Positions 31,702 through 42,464 of a stretch of 64,000 bases of DNA are shown here, one piece after another. Both the position numbers and the translations under genes were made by a program. The first letter of the stretch is position 1. The number at the start of each line of letters is the position of its first letter. Under the pieces are notes generated by a model, which was not told the DNA's origin, made no database searches, and saw only the letters and a list, made by a program, of their open reading frames with translations. Source of the DNA: Pseudomonadota bacterium (GTDB lineage: Bacteria > Myxococcota > JACRCW01 > JAFGSX01); the NCBI GenBank assembly GCA_043821645.1, contig JBDRCO010000052.1, forward strand, positions 1 through 64,000, given 5' to 3'.

Positions 31702-33147
31702 TCATCTCACCCACAGCGCCCGGCTCACCAGGGCGAGCAGCGTGGTCAGCTCCAGCCGCCCAAGAATCATGAGCACGGTCAGGACGAGCTTGCCGGCCGG
31801 TGGCACAAAGGCGTAGTTCTCGATCGATCCCACGCGCCCGAGACCAGGACCTATGTTGCCCAGGGTCGCGGCCACCGAGGTCACGGCGGTGATCAGGTCC
31901 AGGCCCAGTGCGGCCATGCACACGCTTCCGAGCACGAAGAGCATGATGAACAGTCCGAAGAAGGCCAGGATGCCGCGCACCACTCCCTCGGGAATGACGT
32001 GCTCGCCGAGACGCAGTCGCACCACCCCCTGTGGGTGAAAGGTTCGAACCACCTCGGCCCAGGCGGCCTTCCACACCACAACGATGCGCGAGACCTTGAT
32101 GCCTCCAGCGGTGCTGCCCGCGGATGCTCCGACGAACATCAGCGCCACCAGGATGATCTTGCTCATGGCCGGATAGGTGTCGAAGTTGTCGGTGCCGAAG
32201 CCGGTGGTGGTCACGATGGACACCGTCTGAAAGACCGCGGCGCGAATGGTGTCGTGCCAGGAGGCATGGCGCCCCCAGATGTCGACGGTGATGAGCACAC
32301 TGGCCACGGCTGTCAGGGCCAGGTAGGTGCGCAGCTCGACGTCGCGCCGGGCCGGGATCCACCTGCCCCGCAGCACGGCGAAGTAGAGCGAGAAGTTCAC
32401 GCCGGCGGCCAGCATGAAGACCACGATGACCCACTCGGCAGCGGGATTCTGAAAGGCGGCCACGCTGGCATTGCGCGTCGAGAAGCCGCCGGTGGCCATG
32501 GTGGCGAAAGCGTGGTTGACCGCCTCGAAGAGATCCAGTCCACAGGCCCACAGCGCGAGGGTCTCGATGACCGTGAGGCCCAGGTAGATACGCCACAGCA
32601 CGCTGGAGGTCTCGCGGATCTTGGGTCGTAGCCCCTCGGTGATGGGTCCAGGAACCTCGGCGCCGAACAGCCGTCGCGCGCCGACCCCGAGCTGCGGAAA
32701 GATCGCCACGAACAGCACGATGATGCCCATGCCGCCCAGCCAGTGGGTCATCGAGCGCCACAACAGCAGGGCGTGGCTGAGCTTCTCGATGTCGACCAGG
32801 ATGGTGGCGCCCGTCGTGGTGAAGCCCGAAGCCGCTTCGAAGGTCGAATCCACCAGGCTGTCGACGGATCCATCCAGCAAGAAGGGCAAACCACCCAGGA
32901 CCGCGATGGCGATCCAGCTCAGTCCGACCACTGCGACAGCCTCGCGCCTGTAGACCGTGGGCGGCCTGCCCCGCGCCCACCAGCGCAGACCACCGGCGAT
33001 GCCCCCGGTGAGGGCCACGCTGCCCAGGAGTGCCCACAGGCTGTGATGTTCGCCGTACGCTGCCGCCACGGCGGCGGGCACCCCCATGGCCGCCGCGGTG
33101 ATCGCCAGGAGCAAACTCATCAGGTAGGCGACAGTTTTCAGGTGCAC
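31702..33147 (-). CDS. trkH: Trk potassium uptake membrane protein
   Basis: SGFTTTG, WLGGMGI, ATGGF, TTTGF, GSTAGGIK, LGNIGPG and GRLE. Confidence 0.95.
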   Translation of the reverse strand: MHLKTVAYLMSLLLAITAAAMGVPAAVAAAYGEHHSLWALLGSVALTGGIAGGLRWWARGRPPTVYRREAVAVVGLSWIAIAVLGGLPFLLDGSVDSLVDSTFEAASGFTTTGATILVDIEKLSHALLLWRSMTHWLGGMGIIVLFVAIFPQLGVGARRLFGAEVPGPITEGLRPKIRETSSVLWRIYLGLTVIETLALWACGLDLFEAVNHAFATMATGGFSTRNASVAAFQNPAAEWVIVVFMLAAGVNFSLYFAVLRGRWIPARRDVELRTYLALTAVASVLITVDIWGRHASWHDTIRAAVFQTVSIVTTTGFGTDNFDTYPAMSKIILVALMFVGASAGSTAGGIKVSRIVVVWKAAWAEVVRTFHPQGVVRLRLGEHVIPEGVVRGILAFFGLFIMLFVLGSVCMAALGLDLITAVTSVAATLGNIGPGLGRVGSIENYAFVPPAGKLVLTVLMILGRLELTTLLALVSRALWVR

Positions 33148-33156
33148 GCTGCGACC

Positions 33157-34512
33157 TCAGCCTATGAACCAGTGACGCTCACCGAATAGACGGGTCACTT
33201 CGTCACGCACCTTTGGGAGTGCGAATACCACCACCAGATCGTCTGGCTGGATGGCGTCGTCGCCGGAGGGAACGAAGGCGTCGTCGTTGCGGGCCACGGC
33301 GCCGATGATGGCGCCGCGCGGGAAGTCGAGTTTTTTAAGTGGCGTCCCGATGATGCGGCTACGTCCCTGCGCGCGGAATTCCAGCACCTCGCCCTTGCCA
33401 CCTTCGAGCAGAGAGATGCTGACCAGCTCGCTGGGGCGGACATAGCGCAGGATCTGGTTGGCGACGAGGAGCCAGGGGCAGATGGTGGCGTCGATGCCCA
33501 GGCGCCTGTAGATGGCCGTGTACTCGGTCTTTTGCACCAGGGCCACAGTGCGGCGCGCCTTGAGTTGCCGGGCCAGCAGCGTCGATAGCAGGTTCAGGTC
33601 GTCCTCCCGGGTCAGCGCCGCGAACAGGTCGGCGTTCTCGATGCCCTCCTCCTTGAGGAGATCGCCGTCGGTGGCGTCGCCCTGCACCACATTGACCGCG
33701 ACGTCCTCGGCCAGCTGGCTGCACGCCTCCGGGTCCTTGTCGATGACCGTGACCCTGGCCTTTTCACCGCGAAGGCCGCGGATCACGCTGCGCGCCAGCA
33801 TGCCTGCGCCGACCAGGATGATGTGGCGGTTGTCGGCCAGGCGCTTTTTACCAAAAATGGATTCGATCTTCTTGATGACGTCGGTCCGGCCGATGATGAA
33901 GGCCTCGTCGCCCTCGTGGAGCATGTCGTTGCCGGTGGGGATGAGCAGCTCGTCATCTCGCAGCAGGGCTGCGATGAGCGCGCCTCGCGGCAGGCGCAGG
34001 TCCTTGAGTGGTCGCTTGGTCGGCGTCGTGCCCTCCTGGACCGCAAGCTGGATCATCTCGACGCGGTTCTGGGCAAAACGCTCGATGGCCACGGCGCCTC
34101 GCGAGCGCACGACCTGGGTCAGCTCCGCGGCGGTCAGGATCTCGGGGCACACCACCAGATCCACGCCCAGTACGTCGGTCGAGAAGCCAACTGCGAGGTC
34201 CACGTGATCCGGATCGCTGGTGCGCGCCACCGCCGTGCGCACCCCCAGCTGCTTGGCCATGATGGCGCAAAGCAGGTTCACCTCATCATTGTTGCTGACC
34301 GCGATCACTAGGTCGGCGTTCGCCACCCCGACCTCGCGCAGGACCCGGGTCGAGGCCCCGCTTCCAGTGTAGGTCATCACGTCAATGGACTCGGAGATCT
34401 TGGCGATGCGCTCGGCGTCACGATCGATCACAGTGACATCATGGCTCTCGCGCACGAGGTGGCGCGCCACGCTGGTCCCGACCTCCCCGGCGCCGACGAT
34501 GATGATGTTCAT
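33157..34512 (-). CDS. trkA: Trk potassium uptake NAD-binding subunit
   Basis: Duplicated RCK_N/RCK_C with IVGAGEVG; adjacent to trkH. Confidence 0.94.
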   Translation of the reverse strand: MNIIIVGAGEVGTSVARHLVRESHDVTVIDRDAERIAKISESIDVMTYTGSGASTRVLREVGVANADLVIAVSNNDEVNLLCAIMAKQLGVRTAVARTSDPDHVDLAVGFSTDVLGVDLVVCPEILTAAELTQVVRSRGAVAIERFAQNRVEMIQLAVQEGTTPTKRPLKDLRLPRGALIAALLRDDELLIPTGNDMLHEGDEAFIIGRTDVIKKIESIFGKKRLADNRHIILVGAGMLARSVIRGLRGEKARVTVIDKDPEACSQLAEDVAVNVVQGDATDGDLLKEEGIENADLFAALTREDDLNLLSTLLARQLKARRTVALVQKTEYTAIYRRLGIDATICPWLLVANQILRYVRPSELVSISLLEGGKGEVLEFRAQGRSRIIGTPLKKLDFPRGAIIGAVARNDDAFVPSGDDAIQPDDLVVVFALPKVRDEVTRLFGERHWFIG

Positions 34513-34630
34513 GGGCGCGCTTTATAGCCCGGGTCGGTGGACCCGTCGAGCCGCGTGGTGGCGCCCATCGCTCGCGTTGTCAAGCGCCAGGGCCTCTGCT
34601 AGGGAACAGGTTCCTTTCGCCGAGGTCCAC

Positions 34631-35275
34631 ATGGGTCAGCTCATCGATCGCGAGAACTTCGAACGCGGCATTCGTCGCAGCCAGTTCCTGGTCAAGACAG
34701 GGCAGGTGCTCAGCCCGGCAGCACTGGAGCTCGCGCGAGAACGTGGCATCGAGATCGTGCGCGAGGGCACCGGACGGCAATTGATGCCGAGGCAGGCCCA
34801 GGAGATCGAAAGCCTCAGCGAGCGCATCCTCAAGCGTTTCGTCGAAGCCGGCATGACACCGGGACCCGAGCTCATCGACGCCGTCGCTGCCGAGGTGGCA
34901 GCCATCGCCCGGGGAGACAAACCTGCCGAGGTTCCCGGGACGCATCAGGATAGCCAGATGGCCGGCTGCTTGACCTGTGGTGCGCAGCGTGTGGAATCCG
35001 GGCGCGAGCGTGTGGTGGTCACGTCGGCGGGGCGCAACACCTTTGGCATCGTGGCGGGGCTCGCCTCGGCCATCGCCGAAGCTCAGGCTGACATCCTTGA
35101 CCTGTCACAGACCCTGGTCGGCGACTACTTCACGATGATCATCGTCGTCGATATCGCACATGCCAGTCAGCCCTTCGAAGGTTTTCGCGAACGCCTGGCG
35201 GCGGTGGGTGCGCGCCTCGGCGTGCATGTCGCGGTGATGCACGACGAACTGTTGAGGTCCATGCACCGTGTCTGA
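34631..35275 (+). CDS. ACT-domain protein (UPF0237-like) with ~120-aa N-terminal extension
   Basis: C-terminal VVVT..GRN..GIVA, DILDLSQTL...YFTMI and MHRV end typical of UPF0237; GAGG RBS before ATG 34631. Confidence 0.8.
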   Translation: MGQLIDRENFERGIRRSQFLVKTGQVLSPAALELARERGIEIVREGTGRQLMPRQAQEIESLSERILKRFVEAGMTPGPELIDAVAAEVAAIARGDKPAEVPGTHQDSQMAGCLTCGAQRVESGRERVVVTSAGRNTFGIVAGLASAIAEAQADILDLSQTLVGDYFTMIIVVDIAHASQPFEGFRERLAAVGARLGVHVAVMHDELLRSMHRV

Positions 35276-35690
35276 GCGAGCCGCTCGCCGCATCCGGCCT
35301 GCCCTTCTCGGTGCCGTGCTCCTGGGGTCCAGCCTGACAGCCTGCGACGGTGACACCGTGGCCGAACTACAGGGGCGCTGGGTCGCCGAGCGCGTGCTGT
35401 ACGACGTGGCCGGAGGGGATGCATTCAAGGCTGTCAGCGACCGCCTGGGTGACATCGCCCTGGCCTTCGAGGGAGACCGCGTCGAGCTCTCCTTTCTGGG
35501 CACGCACTCCACGCACGAGTTCTCGGTCGAGAAACGCTGGCGTGGGGATCACGTTCTGCACCTCTACCAGGTGGGGTCGCTCCGCTTCGTCGATCTCAAG
35601 ATCGCGTTAATTAAGGGTGGGCGCCTGCGGGTCGACCTGCCAGGCCCAGAGGGATCCCGGATCACTGGCTTCGTGTACCGCCGACCATGA
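35268..35690 (+). CDS. Small hypothetical lipoprotein (lipocalin-like beta fold possible)
   Basis: Lipobox LTAC, L.G.W motif, overlaps the ACT gene stop. Confidence 0.55.
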   Translation: MSERAARRIRPALLGAVLLGSSLTACDGDTVAELQGRWVAERVLYDVAGGDAFKAVSDRLGDIALAFEGDRVELSFLGTHSTHEFSVEKRWRGDHVLHLYQVGSLRFVDLKIALIKGGRLRVDLPGPEGSRITGFVYRRP

Positions 35691-35700
35691 GCAGCTCCCG

Positions 35701-37449
35701 CTAGCTTACACGCTGAACGCTGGCCCGCTCGAAGGTCGCCAGGTCCGCGAACAGGGGCGCAAAGCCACCGCTGTTCGCCTCGGCGAGCGGAAACAGCAGG
35801 CGTGCCCGGGATACGGCCTGGAGTTCCTCGACAAGAGCGCGATGGGCGAGCAGGGCCCCGGTCCCTGGCGCGAAGAGTGCCCGCAGCCCCATGACATGAC
35901 TGTGGAAGCGCAGGATGCCCAGTTCTCCGGTGGTCCGGCGCACGTAGATGTCGGTGATCACCACGTTCTCGCGCTGCTCGTAGCCCAGCGTCAGCTCGGC
36001 CACGATACCCAGGGCAATGGCGACGACGTTCTCCAGGGGCAACACAAAGGCTGCCACGCCCTCGCCAGTACACAGCAGGCCCGCCGGGTCACGTCCGATG
36101 AAGCTGCAGCAGCGCACCTGCGGCAACACATGATCCGGACCCGGGGGGGGCGGCACGATGGCCTTCGAGCCAGGCAAGGGGGACCCGGTGACGACGGGCG
36201 CTGCCTGTAGCGTGCCATAGAGCGAGGCCAGGTGGGGATCTGCCTGGACCAGGGCCGTGGCAATGCGCGGTCGAACCGAGGCCAGATCGAGATGATCGCG
36301 GTACTGGAACAGGTAGTCGCTGACCGCACCCGAGTCGTCCAGTCCAATGCAACGATCGAGCAGCCACTCGAACCAGCGCGTGGCGTCGCTTCGATCGTCC
36401 GCGGCGAGGGCGGTGTCGATGAGACCCAGGGCGGCGGCGACGTTTCGCTGATCGCGATGCAGTGCGTCGTGGAAAGCCAGGCGCGCGGTGCCAAGTTCAC
36501 CATGGGCCAGGGCCTCGCGTCCGCGCACCACCGAGGGATCCTCCGGCGACACCTCGAGGGCGGCGGCGAGCGCGGCGGCGGGTCCCAGGCGCTGCTCCAG
36601 GCCGGTTCGCGCCACCACGATCGCGAACAGCGCCCCGAAGCCAAAGCCACCCACGTGGGCGGCAAATGCCACGTTGCTCTGCTCTCCGCGAAACAGCAGG
36701 TACAGGACGTCCTGGCCAAAGAAGAACACGCCCCAGACCCAGGCCGGCAGGCTGAACGAACCCGCACGGATCAGGATCCAGTAAAAGAACCGGACCCGGC
36801 GCCGCGCGAAGCGAAAGCAGAAAGCACCCACGCAGGCCGAGATGGCTCCCGATGCGCCGATGAGGGGCAGACCCGGCGAGGGCGTCATCGCCGCGTGGAG
36901 TCCGCCCGCCGCCACACCACCGAGGAGGTAGAGCAGAGCGAACAGCAGGATCCCCCACACCTCCTCGAGAAACGGCCCGGCCACGAGGGCAAACAGCACC
37001 ATGTTGCCCACGAGATGCCACACGTCGGCATGCACGAAGAGGTGGCTGACCCAGCCGACCTGCAGCAGACCTTCGGCAGGGATCAGCCCCCAGCGCCGGG
37101 CGTTCTGATCCATCGAACGCCTCAGCACCTGGCATCGCGCGTCGAGGAGCTGTTGCTCGTCGCGTTGCAGCGTTGGTCCCGGAGATTCGGCACGGGCGTG
37201 CAGCGTCTCCACCCGATCGCGCAGGTGCGCGGGCAGCATGGCACTCACGTCGTCGGGGAGATCGAGGTACTGCCGCTGGTCCCAGTAGCCAAGGATCTCC
37301 TCGAGCTGCGAGGAGGCCACCCGGGGGTCCGCATCGCCCTGCCGGAGGGCGCCCCCGACATGCACCAGCACGCTCACCAGCAGCACGATGATGGAGACCA
37401 GAGGTATACGTCGCAGCCACCCGTCGTCGAGGCCGTAGGGGAAGATCAT
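35701..37449 (-). CDS. Rhomboid family intramembrane serine protease with C-terminal TPR/soluble domain
   Basis: HLFVHADVWHLVGNM, catalytic GASG and AHVGG; ATG 37449 overlaps the upstream stop. Confidence 0.88.
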   Translation of the reverse strand: MIFPYGLDDGWLRRIPLVSIIVLLVSVLVHVGGALRQGDADPRVASSQLEEILGYWDQRQYLDLPDDVSAMLPAHLRDRVETLHARAESPGPTLQRDEQQLLDARCQVLRRSMDQNARRWGLIPAEGLLQVGWVSHLFVHADVWHLVGNMVLFALVAGPFLEEVWGILLFALLYLLGGVAAGGLHAAMTPSPGLPLIGASGAISACVGAFCFRFARRRVRFFYWILIRAGSFSLPAWVWGVFFFGQDVLYLLFRGEQSNVAFAAHVGGFGFGALFAIVVARTGLEQRLGPAAALAAALEVSPEDPSVVRGREALAHGELGTARLAFHDALHRDQRNVAAALGLIDTALAADDRSDATRWFEWLLDRCIGLDDSGAVSDYLFQYRDHLDLASVRPRIATALVQADPHLASLYGTLQAAPVVTGSPLPGSKAIVPPPPGPDHVLPQVRCCSFIGRDPAGLLCTGEGVAAFVLPLENVVAIALGIVAELTLGYEQRENVVITDIYVRRTTGELGILRFHSHVMGLRALFAPGTGALLAHRALVEELQAVSRARLLFPLAEANSGGFAPLFADLATFERASVQRVS

Positions 37450-38762
37450 GGCGCGCTCCCGCGGTTCGTGGGCACCGCGATCCGCGGTCTGACCTCCTCC
37501 ACTTCGACTTGGGCGCGTCCCGCATCGGTCAGGAAAAGCATGCGAATGTTGACCGCCAGGAGAACGACGAGGAGTGCGGTCAGGGCTCGGATATCGACAC
37601 CGAAAGCACGCCCCACCGCCAGCAGAGCGATCACCTGTCCCGCCACTGCACCCATCTTGAGCCAGAAAACCAGACCGGCGCGCGGCCGTGCTGCGACGTC
37701 GGCCGCTCCCCCCGGCTGGAATGCGGTGGCGCAGGAATCGCACCAGGGTCGCAGGTTGATCCGGAAGTGGTGGCAGGCATCGCACAGTGGCCGACCACAG
37801 GACACGCAGCGCTGCCGCGAGTTCAGTTGGTGGTCCGGACAGGGCAAGCCGACGGCGACCGCACTGCGGTCCTCGTGCGCCGCCGGCAGCCCGGACGCCG
37901 TGCCCCGTGTGCCCCCGCCGATCACCAGCAGCGGTCGGCGAGGTGAGGCCAGCTCTGGTGTGTCCGCAGCCGCAGTGGAGGGGAGAGGTGACGCCGTCTC
38001 GGCACTCTGTCCCGGCTGTCGCTCCCCTAGAGAGCCTGGTGCAGGCGCACCCGTCGCGGCATCGGACGCCAGCTGGAGACGGGGGTTGGACGCCAGCTCC
38101 AGCTCGAAATCGCGGTGCCCGCGACCTTCTGTCACCAGCTGTGGCGGCAGTGCCGCGCGTTCCAGGTCGAGTTCAAGGCTCTTCTCGACGCGAACCAGAG
38201 GGTGCTCGCCATCCCCGGAATAATCGAGCCTGCGGAGTTCGCCGCTGACCATGGCCGCAGGAGGCTCCTGTGTGTGCGCGCTGGTCTCGGACTCGACAGG
38301 GCGCTGCGGCCGAAGCGGAACCGGTTGCAGCGCCGGTTCGGTGGCCTGGTATCTCGGATCAGCGGCGGGCAGCGGCGGGGGTGGGATGCGCGTCACGGGT
38401 CGGGCGGCGGACGGTGGTAGCGTGTCTATCCCCGAGATCGGTGCCGGTGTCCGCGGTCGTGTCACCTCCTCGCCAAGGGCCGGCACCTGCGTACGCGTTG
38501 CGCTGAGCACCTCGACCAGTTGATCGGCGCGCGACAGGTCGCCCGCCGTCGGATCGGTGAGATCCACGGTGGTGTCCTCGTCACCGAACACCACTCCCGT
38601 CCTGGGAACGGCAAAGGGATCCCCCGCACCTGGCGGCACAGAGATCGGTGCCGGGCGGATGGTGACGCCGGTGATCTCCACCAGCGGCACACCGCAGGTA
38701 TCGCACACACCGCTCCCTCCAAAGGCGTAGCTCTGCATGCAGCGCGGGCACTGTCGCGGCAC
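37446..38762 (-). CDS. Hypothetical membrane protein: N-terminal zinc ribbon, disordered linker, B-box-like zinc finger, 2 TMs
   Basis: CPRC..CDTC at the N-terminus; CPDH...CVSC...CDAC...WCDSC; two C-terminal hydrophobic helices. Confidence 0.65.
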
Positions 38763-38839
38763 CAGGACCTCCGGGGAACGACGTCCCAGGATAACCCCAC
38801 GCTGACGGGGGCAGCAACGCGACGACCTGGTGATGGAGA

Positions 38840-38868
38840 TTGCCCGGGCACCGATGCACCGTTAGTCT
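38840..38868 (+). promoter_or_regulatory. Putative sigma70 promoter for the UPF0210-yjbQ genes
   Basis: TTGCCC-N17-TAGTCT, about 48 nt upstream of ATG 38916. Confidence 0.45.
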
Positions 38869-38915
38869 GCGACGCCATCGATTCCCGGGTGACCCCGGAG
38901 AATGAGGGAGCGTGC

Positions 38916-40307
38916 ATGTTCTGGCAACACGGGGAAGTGCTCGAGACCTTGCGGATGATAGAGGTTGAGAGCCTGGACATCCGCACAGTGACCATGGGGA
39001 TCTCGCTGCGCGGTGCCGCCTGTGACGACGCCGGGCGGCTGTGCGACCGCATCTACGACACCGTGGTGCGGCGGGCGTCAAAGCTCAAGGCCACGGTGCA
39101 ACAGGTGCAGGCCGAGCTCGGGGTGCCCATCGTCAACTGCCGTGTGTCGGTCACACCCGTGGCCATCGTCAGCGAGGGGGTCGAGCCCACACCCGACGCT
39201 CTGGTTGCGGTCGCCCGCACCCTGGATCGTGCTGCCCAGGAGGTGGGGGTCGACTACATCGCGGGTTTCACCGCCCTGGTCGAGAAGGGATCCACACCAG
39301 GGGACCGCGCTCTCATCGATGCCATCCCCGAGGCCATTGCCTCGACCCAGCGTGTGTGCGCCTCGGTCAACCTGGCGTCGAGCCAGGCGGGCATCAACAT
39401 GGACGCTGTGCGGCGCATGGGGCAGGTCATCCTGGATCTGGCCAACCGCACCGCGGATCGCGATGGCATCGGCTGCGCCAAGCTCGTGGTTTTCGCCAAC
39501 GCGGTCAGTGACAACCCCTTCATCGCGGGCGCCTTTCACGGCGTGGGCGAGGCCGAGAACGTGATCAACGTCGGCGTGTCGGGTCCCGGCGTGGTGCTCG
39601 CCGCGCTCAAGCGCCTGCGTGCCCAGACCCCGGAGAGCGCCATCGACTTCTCGCTGCTCGCCGAGACCATCAAGCGCATGGCCTTCAAGGTCACCCGCGC
39701 CGGAGAGCTTGTCGGCAGAGAAGTGGTGCGCCGTCTGGGGCCACCCCTGTGCTTCGGTGTGGTCGACCTGTCCCTGGCACCGACGCCGGCTGTGGGCGAC
39801 TCGGTGGCCGAGATCATCGAGTTGCTGGGTCTCGAGTGCATCGGTGCGCCCGGAACCACGGCGGCCCTGGCTCTGCTCACGGACGCCGTCAAGCGCGGCG
39901 GCATGATGGCATCGTCGTCGGTGGGCGGCCTGTCGGGGGCATTCATCCCGCTCAGCGAGGACGCCGCCATGGCGCGCGCAGCCGAAGTCGGGGCATTGAC
40001 CATCGAGAAGCTCGAGGCGATGACGGCCATCTGCTCGGTGGGCCTGGACATGGTCACCATCCCTGGTGACACACCGGCGACCACCATCTCCGGCATCATC
40101 GCCGACGAGTGCGCCATCGGTGTGATGAACCACAAGACCACGGCCTGCCGGTTGATCCCGGTACCCGGAAAGAAAGCGGGCGAGCGCGCGGTCTTTGGAG
40201 GCCTGCTCGGCGAGTCACCGGTGATGCCGGTCAACACGTTCTCATCGGCAGGCTTCGTGCGCATTCCGGGTCGCATTCCGGCACCCCTCCACGCCCTGCG
40301 CAACTGA
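38916..40307 (+). CDS. PFL-like family protein (UPF0210/DUF711)
   Basis: [24 protein letters not shown]...[33 protein letters not shown] and PAP...LRN end. Confidence 0.9.
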
Positions 40308-40341
40308 AGGGAGCACAGCTCCCATCGTCGAGGGAGACCTC

Positions 40342-40761
40342 ATGCCTCGCTTCGAGTTGATGTATCGCACCACCACCGGCACCGATCTCCTCGATGTCAC
40401 GGACGACGTGCAAGGTTGCGTGCGCGAGGCTGGCGTCGCCGAGGGTCTGGTTGCGTGTTTTGTACCCGGCTCCACAGCCGCCTTGACCACCATCGAATAC
40501 GAAAGTGGCGCCCTCGAGGACCTGCAGCGCGCCCTCGAACAGCTGGCACCGGTCGATGGCCGATACGCCCACAATGCCCGCTGGCACGACGGCAACGGCT
40601 ACAGTCATCTGCGCGCGGCCCTGCTCGGTCCGTCGCTGAGCGTGCCCGTCGCCGGCGGGCAGCTCGAGCTCGGCACCTGGCAGCAGATCCTGCTGTGCGA
40701 CTTCGACAACAAGCCCAGGCAGCGGCGGCTGGTTGTTCGGGTACTGGGCGATCCGGCCTGA
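40342..40761 (+). CDS. yjbQ: YjbQ family (UPF0047) protein
   Basis: GSTAALTTIEYE, NG.SHLRA and LGTWQQI...DFD. Confidence 0.9.
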   Translation: MPRFELMYRTTTGTDLLDVTDDVQGCVREAGVAEGLVACFVPGSTAALTTIEYESGALEDLQRALEQLAPVDGRYAHNARWHDGNGYSHLRAALLGPSLSVPVAGGQLELGTWQQILLCDFDNKPRQRRLVVRVLGDPA

Positions 40762-40772
40762 GGACCCAGGGA

Positions 40773-42464
40773 TCAGGCTCGACGCTGCAAGATGGTTTCA
40801 TGGCGGCGACGCAGGACACCCAGCATCAACAGTCCCAGCACGAGGGTCGCAGGTGTCGTCCGGGTCGCCTGGTGGCACTGGCACCCAGCCTCGGGCACGA
40901 CCTCGAGGACGTCGAGGCTGGTGGTTTGGGCTCCGCATTCCAGGCCCAGGGAAAGATCCCGCGCACCTGGTGTCGCCCCGGCGTCAACGCGGATGGTCGC
41001 CCGCAGCTCGGTGTCCGACAGGCGCTCGACGTCGACGACCCGGGCACCGGTCCCTGACAACGCGAGTACCATCTCCTGGTCAGACCAGAAGCCCTGGCCC
41101 TGGATGGTGAGGGTGGTGTCCTGGCCTGGCGTCAGGGTCGACGGACTGGACGAACTCAGGCTGGGTTCCGCGCAGTTCAGCATGGCGAGGTCCAGGGTGA
41201 ACTCGCCTCCCTGCACCCGGAAGCTCTCTGGGTCGGGCTCCTCGCTCCCCAGGTTGGCGACCGCCACCACCACGCGCTGAAGCAGGTCGACGTCCTCGAT
41301 GAGTACCTGGCCATGTCCCTGGGCATCGACGTCGACAGGCAGGGCCTGGTTGGGGGGATGGCCCAGGGTGAGCAACTGCGGCCGCCACTGCATCTGTGGA
41401 TCACCGTCGAAGCGAACCCGCAACACGTGCTGGGCAGGCGCCCCGGCGAGGTCGAGGCTCAGGAAGCTGGTACCCAGGATCTGCGGGGCCCGGTGCGGCG
41501 CCAGCTTGGACAGGGGCAGCTGGTCCAGCGCGAGGTCGGTGTCGATCGCGACCTCGGCACCTCGCCACTGAGCTGCTCCCCGGATGTGCTTGCCGTCGTC
41601 GTTGCGACCGATGAAGTAGCGGGCCTCGGAGAAGCGCGTAAAGGCGTCCGCGAAGACCACAGCTTCCTCGGCCAGGACCGTGGTCATGGCGTCGATGAGA
41701 TCCGGTTCATTCGGAGCCGTGGTGTAGGGCAGCCCGTCGCGGTCGAACAGAACCTCGCCAGGCTGGGCCGTGGCGTCCCAGATGCGGGCAAGCAGTCGCC
41801 CGTCACCAGCGCCGTAGGTCTGATCCAAGAAGTACGAGAACAGGCTGGCGCCGTAGTGGTAGTAGCTGCCCCAGTCGACATAGAACAGGGGACGCTCGGG
41901 CTCGCGCTGGAAGTCAGCAAAAACAGTGTCGAGGAAGCTGTCCTCTGGATAGAGGGTCGTCGTCACAGCGACCGTGATCTGCTCGAAGGCGAAGTTGCTG
42001 TCGGTGCATTCGACGGCGAACTGGCAAGCATGGTTGAACTCGTGGGCGAGCAGGTTGGGGAGGTACCACGACGGCATGCTATCGCTGACAAGGGTGATGG
42101 CAGCGCAGTCGGTTCGCGGTGTGCCGGGAATGTCGCCCAGAGCCACCACATGGCCCGCGATGTTGGAGTCGCGCACCAGGTAGATGCGCATGCCGGGGAC
42201 AGGCGCGCCCTGGTCGTCAACGGTGACAGGCACTGCGAAGCCCATGCCATCGATCTCGGCGGTCCACGCCGCCTCGGCTGCGTCGAGCATGTGCTGGGCC
42301 AGGGCCGCGTTGTCCTGCGTGTTGTAGTAGACGCGCAGAGGGCGCTGGCTCGACTCCACGAAACCCACGGATTCGGGCACCTGGGCGCGGGCAGGCACAC
42401 TGGATGCGACCAGGGCCATCGTACTCAGGACTGGCAGGATGCTGTTTCGCAGGGCGGCTCGCAT
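40773..42464 (-). CDS. Secreted zinc metalloprotease (MXAN_6640-like) with Ig-like domain and MYXO-CTERM tail
   Basis: Signal peptide; HEFNH (HExxH); IPT-like PSTLTPGQDTTLTIQGQGF; C-terminal GCQC...LVLGLLMLGVLRRR. Confidence 0.82.
   Translation of the reverse strand: MRAALRNSILPVLSTMALVASSVPARAQVPESVGFVESSQRPLRVYYNTQDNAALAQHMLDAAEAAWTAEIDGMGFAVPVTVDDQGAPVPGMRIYLVRDSNIAGHVVALGDIPGTPRTDCAAITLVSDSMPSWYLPNLLAHEFNHACQFAVECTDSNFAFEQITVAVTTTLYPEDSFLDTVFADFQREPERPLFYVDWGSYYHYGASLFSYFLDQTYGAGDGRLLARIWDATAQPGEVLFDRDGLPYTTAPNEPDLIDAMTTVLAEEAVVFADAFTRFSEARYFIGRNDDGKHIRGAAQWRGAEVAIDTDLALDQLPLSKLAPHRAPQILGTSFLSLDLAGAPAQHVLRVRFDGDPQMQWRPQLLTLGHPPNQALPVDVDAQGHGQVLIEDVDLLQRVVVAVANLGSEEPDPESFRVQGGEFTLDLAMLNCAEPSLSSSSPSTLTPGQDTTLTIQGQGFWSDQEMVLALSGTGARVVDVERLSDTELRATIRVDAGATPGARDLSLGLECGAQTTSLDVLEVVPEAGCQCHQATRTTPATLVLGLLMLGVLRRRHETILQRRA

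Follow-up and report, generated by a model that had tools for sequence, protein, structure and literature searches.

Among microcompartments (BMCs), the HO shell serves as the principal model for structure and engineering, and the available text of Sutter et al. 2021 (PMC8217296) calls its native job enigmatic and states as open the reason for the many pentamer paralogs per shell. That text assigns to HO three BMC-P, no catalogued linker protein and no signature enzyme, and it also describes, in FRAG4, an ACT protein whose N-terminus is BMC-specific, together with an ACT profile for ACI/MIC3 and an EutQ-like extension on the malate dehydrogenase of MIC1/MIC2. EutQ residues 1–99 comprise H1/H2, a linker and H3/H4, with H1/H2 engaging the shell and H3/H4 binding cargo peptides, and this segment is enough to target GFP (PMC12487888, excerpts). 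Removal of the first 100 EutQ residues abolishes EutQ–EutM binding (PMC4827028, excerpts).

The pair named GlyXS–GlyXL (PF13740 plus PF05167; 1ZPV, 2HA9) supports glycine synthesis by genetic rescue in other organisms, with glyoxylate as the predicted GlyXL product; the word "microcompartment" is absent from the main text of that paper (PMC13759103, excerpts). The DUF711 family, to which GlyXL belongs, has the RNR/PFL fold without the radical glycine (PMC4390871, excerpts). Neither PF05167 nor DUF711 gives a match in the text supplements of PMC8217296, whose locus diagrams are images outside that search and may bear on novelty, and none is found in the PMC9052549 supplement or the PMC10690189 text. 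Literature searches, whose coverage took in few subscription papers, turned up no publication that connects DUF711/GlyXL with microcompartments.

The locus described here shares both families and the invariant pocket-numbered residues with the GlyXS–GlyXL pair of PMC13759103 (excerpts), but differs in that GlyXS has 214 aa rather than ~90, that the two genes lie 3.6 kb apart with three ORFs between them, one on the same strand and two on the opposite strand, and that the genome has glyA. A BMC-specific N-terminal part on an ACT protein and an EutQ-like extension are already described for FRAG4/ACI/MIC3 and MIC1/MIC2, whereas the available text (PMC8217296) links none of these to DUF711, myxobacteria, the pentamer quartet or the full EutQ-1–99 layout. 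What the sequence points to is a GlyXS that carries a complete EutQ-type linker, in association with a separate clade of four pentamers within HO-type compartments.

Layout of the extended GlyXS

The window, meaning the whole 64-kb stretch of DNA analysed, carries the following features of the pair.

34622..34625, + strand: RBS-like GAGG ahead of the ATG; start common to 7 close homologs
34631..35275, + strand: extended GlyXS (UPF0237 ACT) gene, 214 aa (ORF, PF13740, NF001220)
34631..34765, + strand: residues 1–45, EutQ-H1/H2-like (PduM-C-like) small alpha/beta domain, predicted shell binder (model, profiles)
34790..34846, + strand: residues 54–72, first amphipathic helix, EutQ-H3-like and encapsulation-peptide-like (model, peptide matrix)
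34865..34909, + strand: residues 79–93, second helix, EutQ-H4-like (model, profile alignment)
34910..34963, + strand: residues 94–111, tether, poorly conserved and low-confidence (alignment, model)
34967..34978, + strand: residues 113–116, CxxC at the start of the helix before ACT, present in a minority of homologs (alignment)
35009..35272, + strand: ACT domain, PF13740, with NF001220 above cut-off (profile scans)
38916..40307, + strand: GlyXL (DUF711/UPF0210), 463 aa, no terminal extension

The first-pass annotation described a UPF0237 ACT protein of 214 aa where about 90 aa is usual, and this description holds. NF001220, a 90-position UPF0237-type model, covers GlyXS residues 126–214 at 84.6 bits against a cut-off of 74, while PF13740 scores the ACT domain at 35.1 bits against a cut-off of 23; both GlyXS and GlyXL lie above NCBIfam equivalog cut-offs. 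A homolog search limited to proteins of 117–375 aa gave 40 matches among 6835 candidates, and the 7 close homologs, 59–79% identical over the full length, share the same start residue. Because the ACT model has only 90 positions and the structure nearest to the GlyXS ACT domain, 1ZPV, is a chain of 84–88 residues, the extension of ~125 residues is real.

In an alignment-based model, residues 1–45 adopt a compact beta-alpha-beta-beta-alpha-beta unit with pLDDT >90, helices 54–72 and 79–93 follow at pLDDT ~70, and a low-confidence stretch (residues 100–117) overlaps a CLTC-bearing helix (112–122), and the ACT fold follows. A single-sequence fold of residues 1–99 came out all-helical, with N-domain pLDDT of 53–64, and the alignment-based model is preferred. 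The CLTC motif reported just before the ACT domain is present, at residues 113–116, but CxxC occurs in only 14/39 aligned homologs and 35/80 loci (best 80 of 193 relatives); this lineage-limited motif would be no more than an auxiliary site for metal or redox chemistry. Foldseek and VIA searches with the whole GlyXS model return ACT-like matches only, a PDB sequence search with the N-domain profile gives nothing below E 0.2, and Atlas feature searches with GlyXS are blank. Matches to E3_binding (E 0.01) and NrtR_WHD (E 0.004–0.05) are sub-cut-off and partial and were set aside.

No Rfam family matches at 33000–41000, and there is thus no glycine riboswitch; no promoter or terminator consensus was found. 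Upstream, a divergent trkA–trkH potassium uptake pair occupies window positions 31702–34512, with no sign of a link to GlyXS.

Likeness of the extension to the EutQ N-terminus

Analysis reveals that GlyXS residues 1–93 align end to end with EutQ 1–101. A profile of 55 ACT extensions scores E. coli EutQ 2–101 at 15.2 bits, above 2000/2000 shuffles and 3000/3000 decoys. With a profile built from 131 segments of non-ACT carriers, EutQ reaches 24.6, the best decoy scoring 12.3. Taken alone, neither sub-profile raises E. coli EutQ above chance, the score being reached by 70/2000 shuffles for the N-domain and 488/2000 for the helices, and pairwise profile comparisons of the extension with EutQ are weak (E 0.015 and 0.0066; hhalign probabilities of 3–6%). 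GlyXS itself (P0001) has no match to the curated EutQ model. One homolog (L226), whose gene directly follows BMC-T and precedes DUF711, matches the NCBIfam EutQ model NF012001 (1–79/1–83, E 5e-6) and also PduM (E 0.0016). Atlas neighbours of GlyXS 1–100 fall in PduO-type, RpiB, EutQ, flavoprotein, PduM-like and malate dehydrogenase clusters at TM 0.39–0.47. The predicted similarity between the extension and EutQ is remote but consistent across methods.

The distribution of the N-domain points in the same direction. The N-domain profile gave 249 matches among 1.84 billion representatives, and the best 150 of 249 were used; of these, 147 were scanned for families, the omissions being two long repeat proteins and a sequence already in the alignment. 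Among the matches listed, 106 carriers are without a family, 14 are ACT proteins and 27 are other proteins, and 24/27 of these non-ACT carriers belong to families catalogued in BMC loci: RpiB (15), flavoprotein (3), PduM-like (2), and EutQ, EutN, class II aldolase and Fe-ADH (1 each), with the carriers assigned from sequence family alone and with RpiB, flavoprotein, aldolase and Fe-ADH not BMC-specific as families. PDU_like is matched by 10/17 N-domain sequences (best E 1.3e-4). The earlier suggestion that the start of the extension recalls EutQ and other BMC-locus proteins is supported both by the alignment and by these relatives, which fall mostly in families of microcompartment loci and do not point to an unrelated globular domain. 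This genome holds no second N-domain carrier, and an EutQ-N search of plasmids returned only near-identical enterobacterial copies. One metagenomic protein (P0132) has the N-domain fused to a partial BMC-P domain, possibly as a frameshift artefact. Separately, residues 6–92 of E. coli EutQ (L187:8303-9004) match positions 2–88 of NF007991, labelled EutA, which suggests another carrier of the module.

Relative to EutQ 1–99 of Salmonella, GlyXS presents the same small H1/H2 domain, linker and H3/H4 pair in the same order and spacing, likewise fused ahead of a C-terminal domain, but it has a shorter H2–H3 linker, no eut genes nearby and ~20% identity. The EutQ cupin PF06249 is absent from the GlyXS C-terminus, where ACT stands instead, so GlyXS is not an EutQ; in predicted working it resembles only the EutQ N-terminus.

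The two helices had been described in the first-pass annotation as matching the encapsulation-peptide pattern. GlyXS has the layout of such a peptide, an amphipathic helix of 15–20 residues borne on a tether of low conservation, with an amphipathic moment of 0.64 for residues 58–72 and 0.31 for residues 79–93. On a matrix built from 30 N-terminal peptides of microcompartment aldehyde dehydrogenases in the loci, selected by a self-written pattern, the first helix reaches p=0.002 against 4000 genome windows (1/200 shuffles), a modest score of 4.6 bits, and 23/39 homologs reach p<0.01 and 32/39 p<0.05. The GlyXS helices share the hydrophobic spacing of the HO aldehyde-dehydrogenase peptides but are paired, internal and positioned behind a folded domain. 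The peptide likeness stands for the first helix, while the pair is better read as EutQ-type H3/H4.

Homologs differ in extension architecture: N-domain plus two helices, the helix pair alone, a single helix, or the N-domain alone. We consider it very unlikely that the helices act as two independent encapsulation peptides beside an incidental N-domain. That reading draws on the observation that both helices score on the dehydrogenase peptide profile, in different homologs, and on the myxobacterial-type loci (from the best 80 of 193 relatives), of which 27/59 have the N-domain and 32/59 give no N-domain match, some with a single helix. It is opposed by the collinearity with EutQ H1–H4, including the spacing, and by three ACT homologs (P0067, P0149, P0173, one labelled Planctomycetota) that have the N-domain without the helix pair, which indicates that the N-domain travels as a module of its own. 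The N-domain and two helices are better read as one putative EutQ-1–99-like module than as a domain with two separate encapsulation peptides.

Shell genes in this genome and in its relatives

Profile scans of the whole assembly place all shell-gene matches on other contigs, in agreement with the first-pass statement that the window holds none. Six BMC-P genes are present, all without internal stops, at two sites.

C23:108856-110094: four tandem BMC-P (quartet; L002, L004-L006, L231), each in a separate clade according to position, distinct from the HO triplet
C132:6162-7410: HO type I satellite, two BMC-P plus a class II aldolase, PF00596 (L001, L003)

In a quick tree of 98 BMC-P, the C23 genes fall outside the HO triplet and group with positions 1–4 of the ACT-linked quartet (SH-aLRT 99, 92, 99 and 97); the C132 pair falls with HO satellite pairs. 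The quartet is flanked by genes that we take from their sequence to be recA-like on one side and thyA/folA-like on the other. The three contigs bearing GlyXS–GlyXL, the quartet and the satellite have a composition ordinary for the assembly, and ACT, GlyXL and quartet do not form one operon here. Relative to HO-type BMC type I as described in the available text of Sutter et al. 2021 (PMC8217296), the satellite of two BMC-P and PF00596 aldolase is the same, whereas the four-gene pentamer clade goes beyond the catalogued three and the main locus was not found in the assembly.

Specifically, no BMC-H, BMC-T or acylating (BMC) aldehyde dehydrogenase was found by three methods in the assembly (94.7% complete, 140 contigs), nor was the third triplet BMC-P of the HO type. 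The proposal of a BMC-targeted adaptor whose compartment is encoded elsewhere is accordingly matched in its pentamers (PF03319) on other contigs, but not by any PF00936 hexamer or trimer gene or BMC dehydrogenase. The six pentamers correspond to the seven of relatives minus the one that adjoins BMC-H there, and a BMC-H-level match is also missing in 4/52 comparable draft genomes. The missing genes share a single few-kb locus in some relatives, with the trimer separate in others; gene order compared with a relative, G001, gave no position for the missing main shell locus. In that relative (L073:4134-6147), BMC-T and a PduS/RnfC-like gene lie by a glycogen-synthase-like gene and are absent from that site here.

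An assembly gap is the likely explanation for the missing main shell locus. The competing reading, in which the family is BMC-linked but the compartment has decayed here, with hexamer, trimer and dehydrogenase lost and a cytosolic GlyXS–GlyXL bearing a left-over tag, appears unlikely. Absence of PF00936 and acylating dehydrogenase from an assembly of this completeness, the broken-up operon, and the decay of the system seen in genomes G423 and G430 speak for it. On the other side are the six stop-free pentamer frames and the aldolase that remain, the module itself, 59–78% identical among close homologs, and the drafts that lack BMC-H equally; moreover, G423 and G430 miss pentamers and helix, which is the opposite pattern. 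A pentamer-only shell in this organism was also considered and is rated low, all 52 tested extended-ACT genomes having hexamer-family genes.

The physical linkage of extended ACT genes to shell genes is seen in relatives from GTDB genomes, of which the best 80 of 193 were kept, a selection that favours extended ACT. By an ACT score >100 bits, 59/80 loci were grouped as myxobacterial-type, 15 of those with other or vague titles. In this selection DUF711 follows the ACT gene in 79/80 loci, and BMC-P of the conserved four-gene cluster lies upstream of ACT–DUF711 in 28/59 myxobacterial-type loci, directly adjacent in 20. BMC-H is found at none of the 80 ACT loci; relatives have a T-H-P-dehydrogenase main HO locus elsewhere. 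No conserved enzyme neighbour besides GlyXL stood out, the commonest others occurring in <=16 loci.

Many loci have, immediately ahead of the quartet, a Lys-rich ORF of 112–155 aa without a Pfam match, clustering with the pentamers, as at the following positions.

L079:6442-6813: Lys-rich ORF
L090:5279-5635: Lys-rich ORF
L114:8262-8726: Lys-rich ORF
L095:8169-8507: Lys-rich ORF

This ORF remains where the quartet is missing, and it has no match in this genome. In loci L117 and L127 a helix-less ACT follows immediately on the gene that stands ahead of the quartet in L114; neither genome has BMC-P or a BMC dehydrogenase, and each has a single BMC-H. The DUF711 match is split over two frames in L117:10356-11607 and L126:10527-11814, which in L117 coincides with the absence of the pentamers.

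Co-occurrence was followed in several sets of genomes, whose counts overstate independence because related genomes are not independent. In an unbiased sample of 60 phylum relatives, four genomes have ACT, the very four that have DUF711, and each carries both shell families; PF00936 is present in 4/4 of these against 26/56 others (p=0.11, not significant alone). GlyXL is missing from 22/26 BMC-P-bearing relatives and is hence an add-on module, not a core HO enzyme. Among 401 phylum genomes, 12 have the extended ACT, the 11 besides this genome coming from only three families and all carrying PF00936, and the fourth quartet gene occurs in 4/401, all among those 12. The shell test set of 57 genomes covers 50/80 loci (39/59 myxobacterial-type, 8/18 Ignavibacteria/Bacteroidota-titled, 3/3 short) and 7 others. 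In this set both PF00936 and PF03319 are present in 52/52 genomes with an extended, targeting-helix ACT, BMC-P is present in 1/5 helix-less ACT genomes, and exactly seven BMC-P, including the extra four-gene clade, occur in 25/57. Two of the genomes, G423 and G430, lack all three of quartet, BMC aldehyde dehydrogenase and ACT helix. A second phylum, that of G444, comprises 251 genomes, from which two divergent and one sub-threshold GlyXL matches were dropped; PF00936 is present in 28/29 GlyXL genomes there against 27/222 others, and 22/22 ACT genes located no more than 1.5 kb away have a pair of helices on visual inspection. A search for shorter homologs yielded 7 proteins, several apparently fragments, and no control was drawn from them.

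Collectively, these counts and the upstream pentamers show the extension co-occurring with BMC loci, a pattern for which the first-pass annotation proposed a test. The other half of that test, shell genes missing beside short ACT, is covered by 5 helix-less genomes, with G440 combining shell genes and a short ACT, and G475 is an exception on the extended side, with no PF00936 match. It is most improbable that the extension is an oligomerisation part or a part binding some unrelated partner, with shell co-occurrence reflecting shared ancestry. Amphipathic helix pairs are common, Atlas structure matches for GlyXS residues 48–125 are generic helix pairs from unrelated families, and the genomes are not independent. 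These points are countered by the physical linkage to pentamer or trimer genes, the recurrence of the pattern in the second phylum, the coupled absence in G423 and G430, and the controls, scored for DUF711 and shell genes, in which DUF711 occurs in 5/14 genomes, none of these 5 with shell genes.

GlyXL and the proposed adaptor role

GlyXL carries no extension or targeting tail, here or in any full-length locus listed. Its residues Arg23, Arg76, Glu348 and Arg412 are invariant in 41/41 aligned GlyXL and match the pocket residues of PMC13759103 (excerpts) by numbering, not by alignment, from which we infer the correspondence. An aldehyde-forming enzyme, as GlyXL is predicted to be, would fit a metabolosome.

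We favour the reading in which GlyXS serves as a shell–cargo adaptor that probably loads untagged GlyXL into an HO-type microcompartment. Residues 1–45 would bind the hexamer or trimer tiles of the shell, while helices 54–93 may bundle with the peptide on the compartment aldehyde dehydrogenase or with other core helices. The ACT dimer would bind, and perhaps regulate, GlyXL, so that N-domain, helix pair and ACT dimer together could pull GlyXL into the core. There the shell may confine an aldehyde made or used by GlyXL beside the dehydrogenase and the class II aldolase. Should this hold, the EutQ linker mechanism would be seen also in a transferable module, one that brings in an enzyme without a tag of its own by way of the enzyme's regulatory subunit. 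GlyXL would be a candidate aldehyde-forming cargo for HO, and the dehydrogenase and aldolase would constrain its chemistry.

A different role for the same module, docking GlyXS as a structural or regulatory factor such as an EutQ-like assembly bridge or an amino-acid sensor, with GlyXL outside or loosely attached, seems improbable. The EutQ N-terminus is needed for assembly itself (PMC12487888, excerpts), HO loci are without a catalogued linker protein, ACT domains commonly bind amino acids, and GlyXS–GlyXL binding is not reported in the section of PMC13759103 covered. Set against this, 22/26 HO-type genomes are without GlyXS, and assembly therefore cannot depend on it; in addition, DUF711 follows ACT in nearly all of the best 80 loci, and one-helix variants look like plain cargo tags.

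The adaptor reading bears further on how the pentamers are shared out. In eight genomes (G417, G419, G421, G424, G426, G431, G432, G434) the only pentamers found are the four beside GlyXS–GlyXL; hexamer-family genes are present, and the main loci inspected in this group contain T, H and dehydrogenase and no pentamer. From this gene content, the shell in those eight genomes could be capped solely by the GlyX-operon pentamers. GlyXL may define, as signature enzyme, a metabolosome subtype not described before whose vertices use a dedicated set of four pentamers, though we hold this doubtful; such a subtype would be a glyoxylate-handling organelle, its cargo loaded by its own regulatory subunit.

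The main loci L169-L171 and L173, of genomes G431, G432, G421 and G434, contain BMC-T, BMC-H and dehydrogenase, no BMC-P, and are interrupted by unrelated genes; the quartet supplies the only pentamers found in these four. In two of the main loci a class V aminotransferase, presumably SerC and with a conceivable link to glyoxylate transamination, follows BMC-T (L170:16444-17556 and L171:13278-14354).
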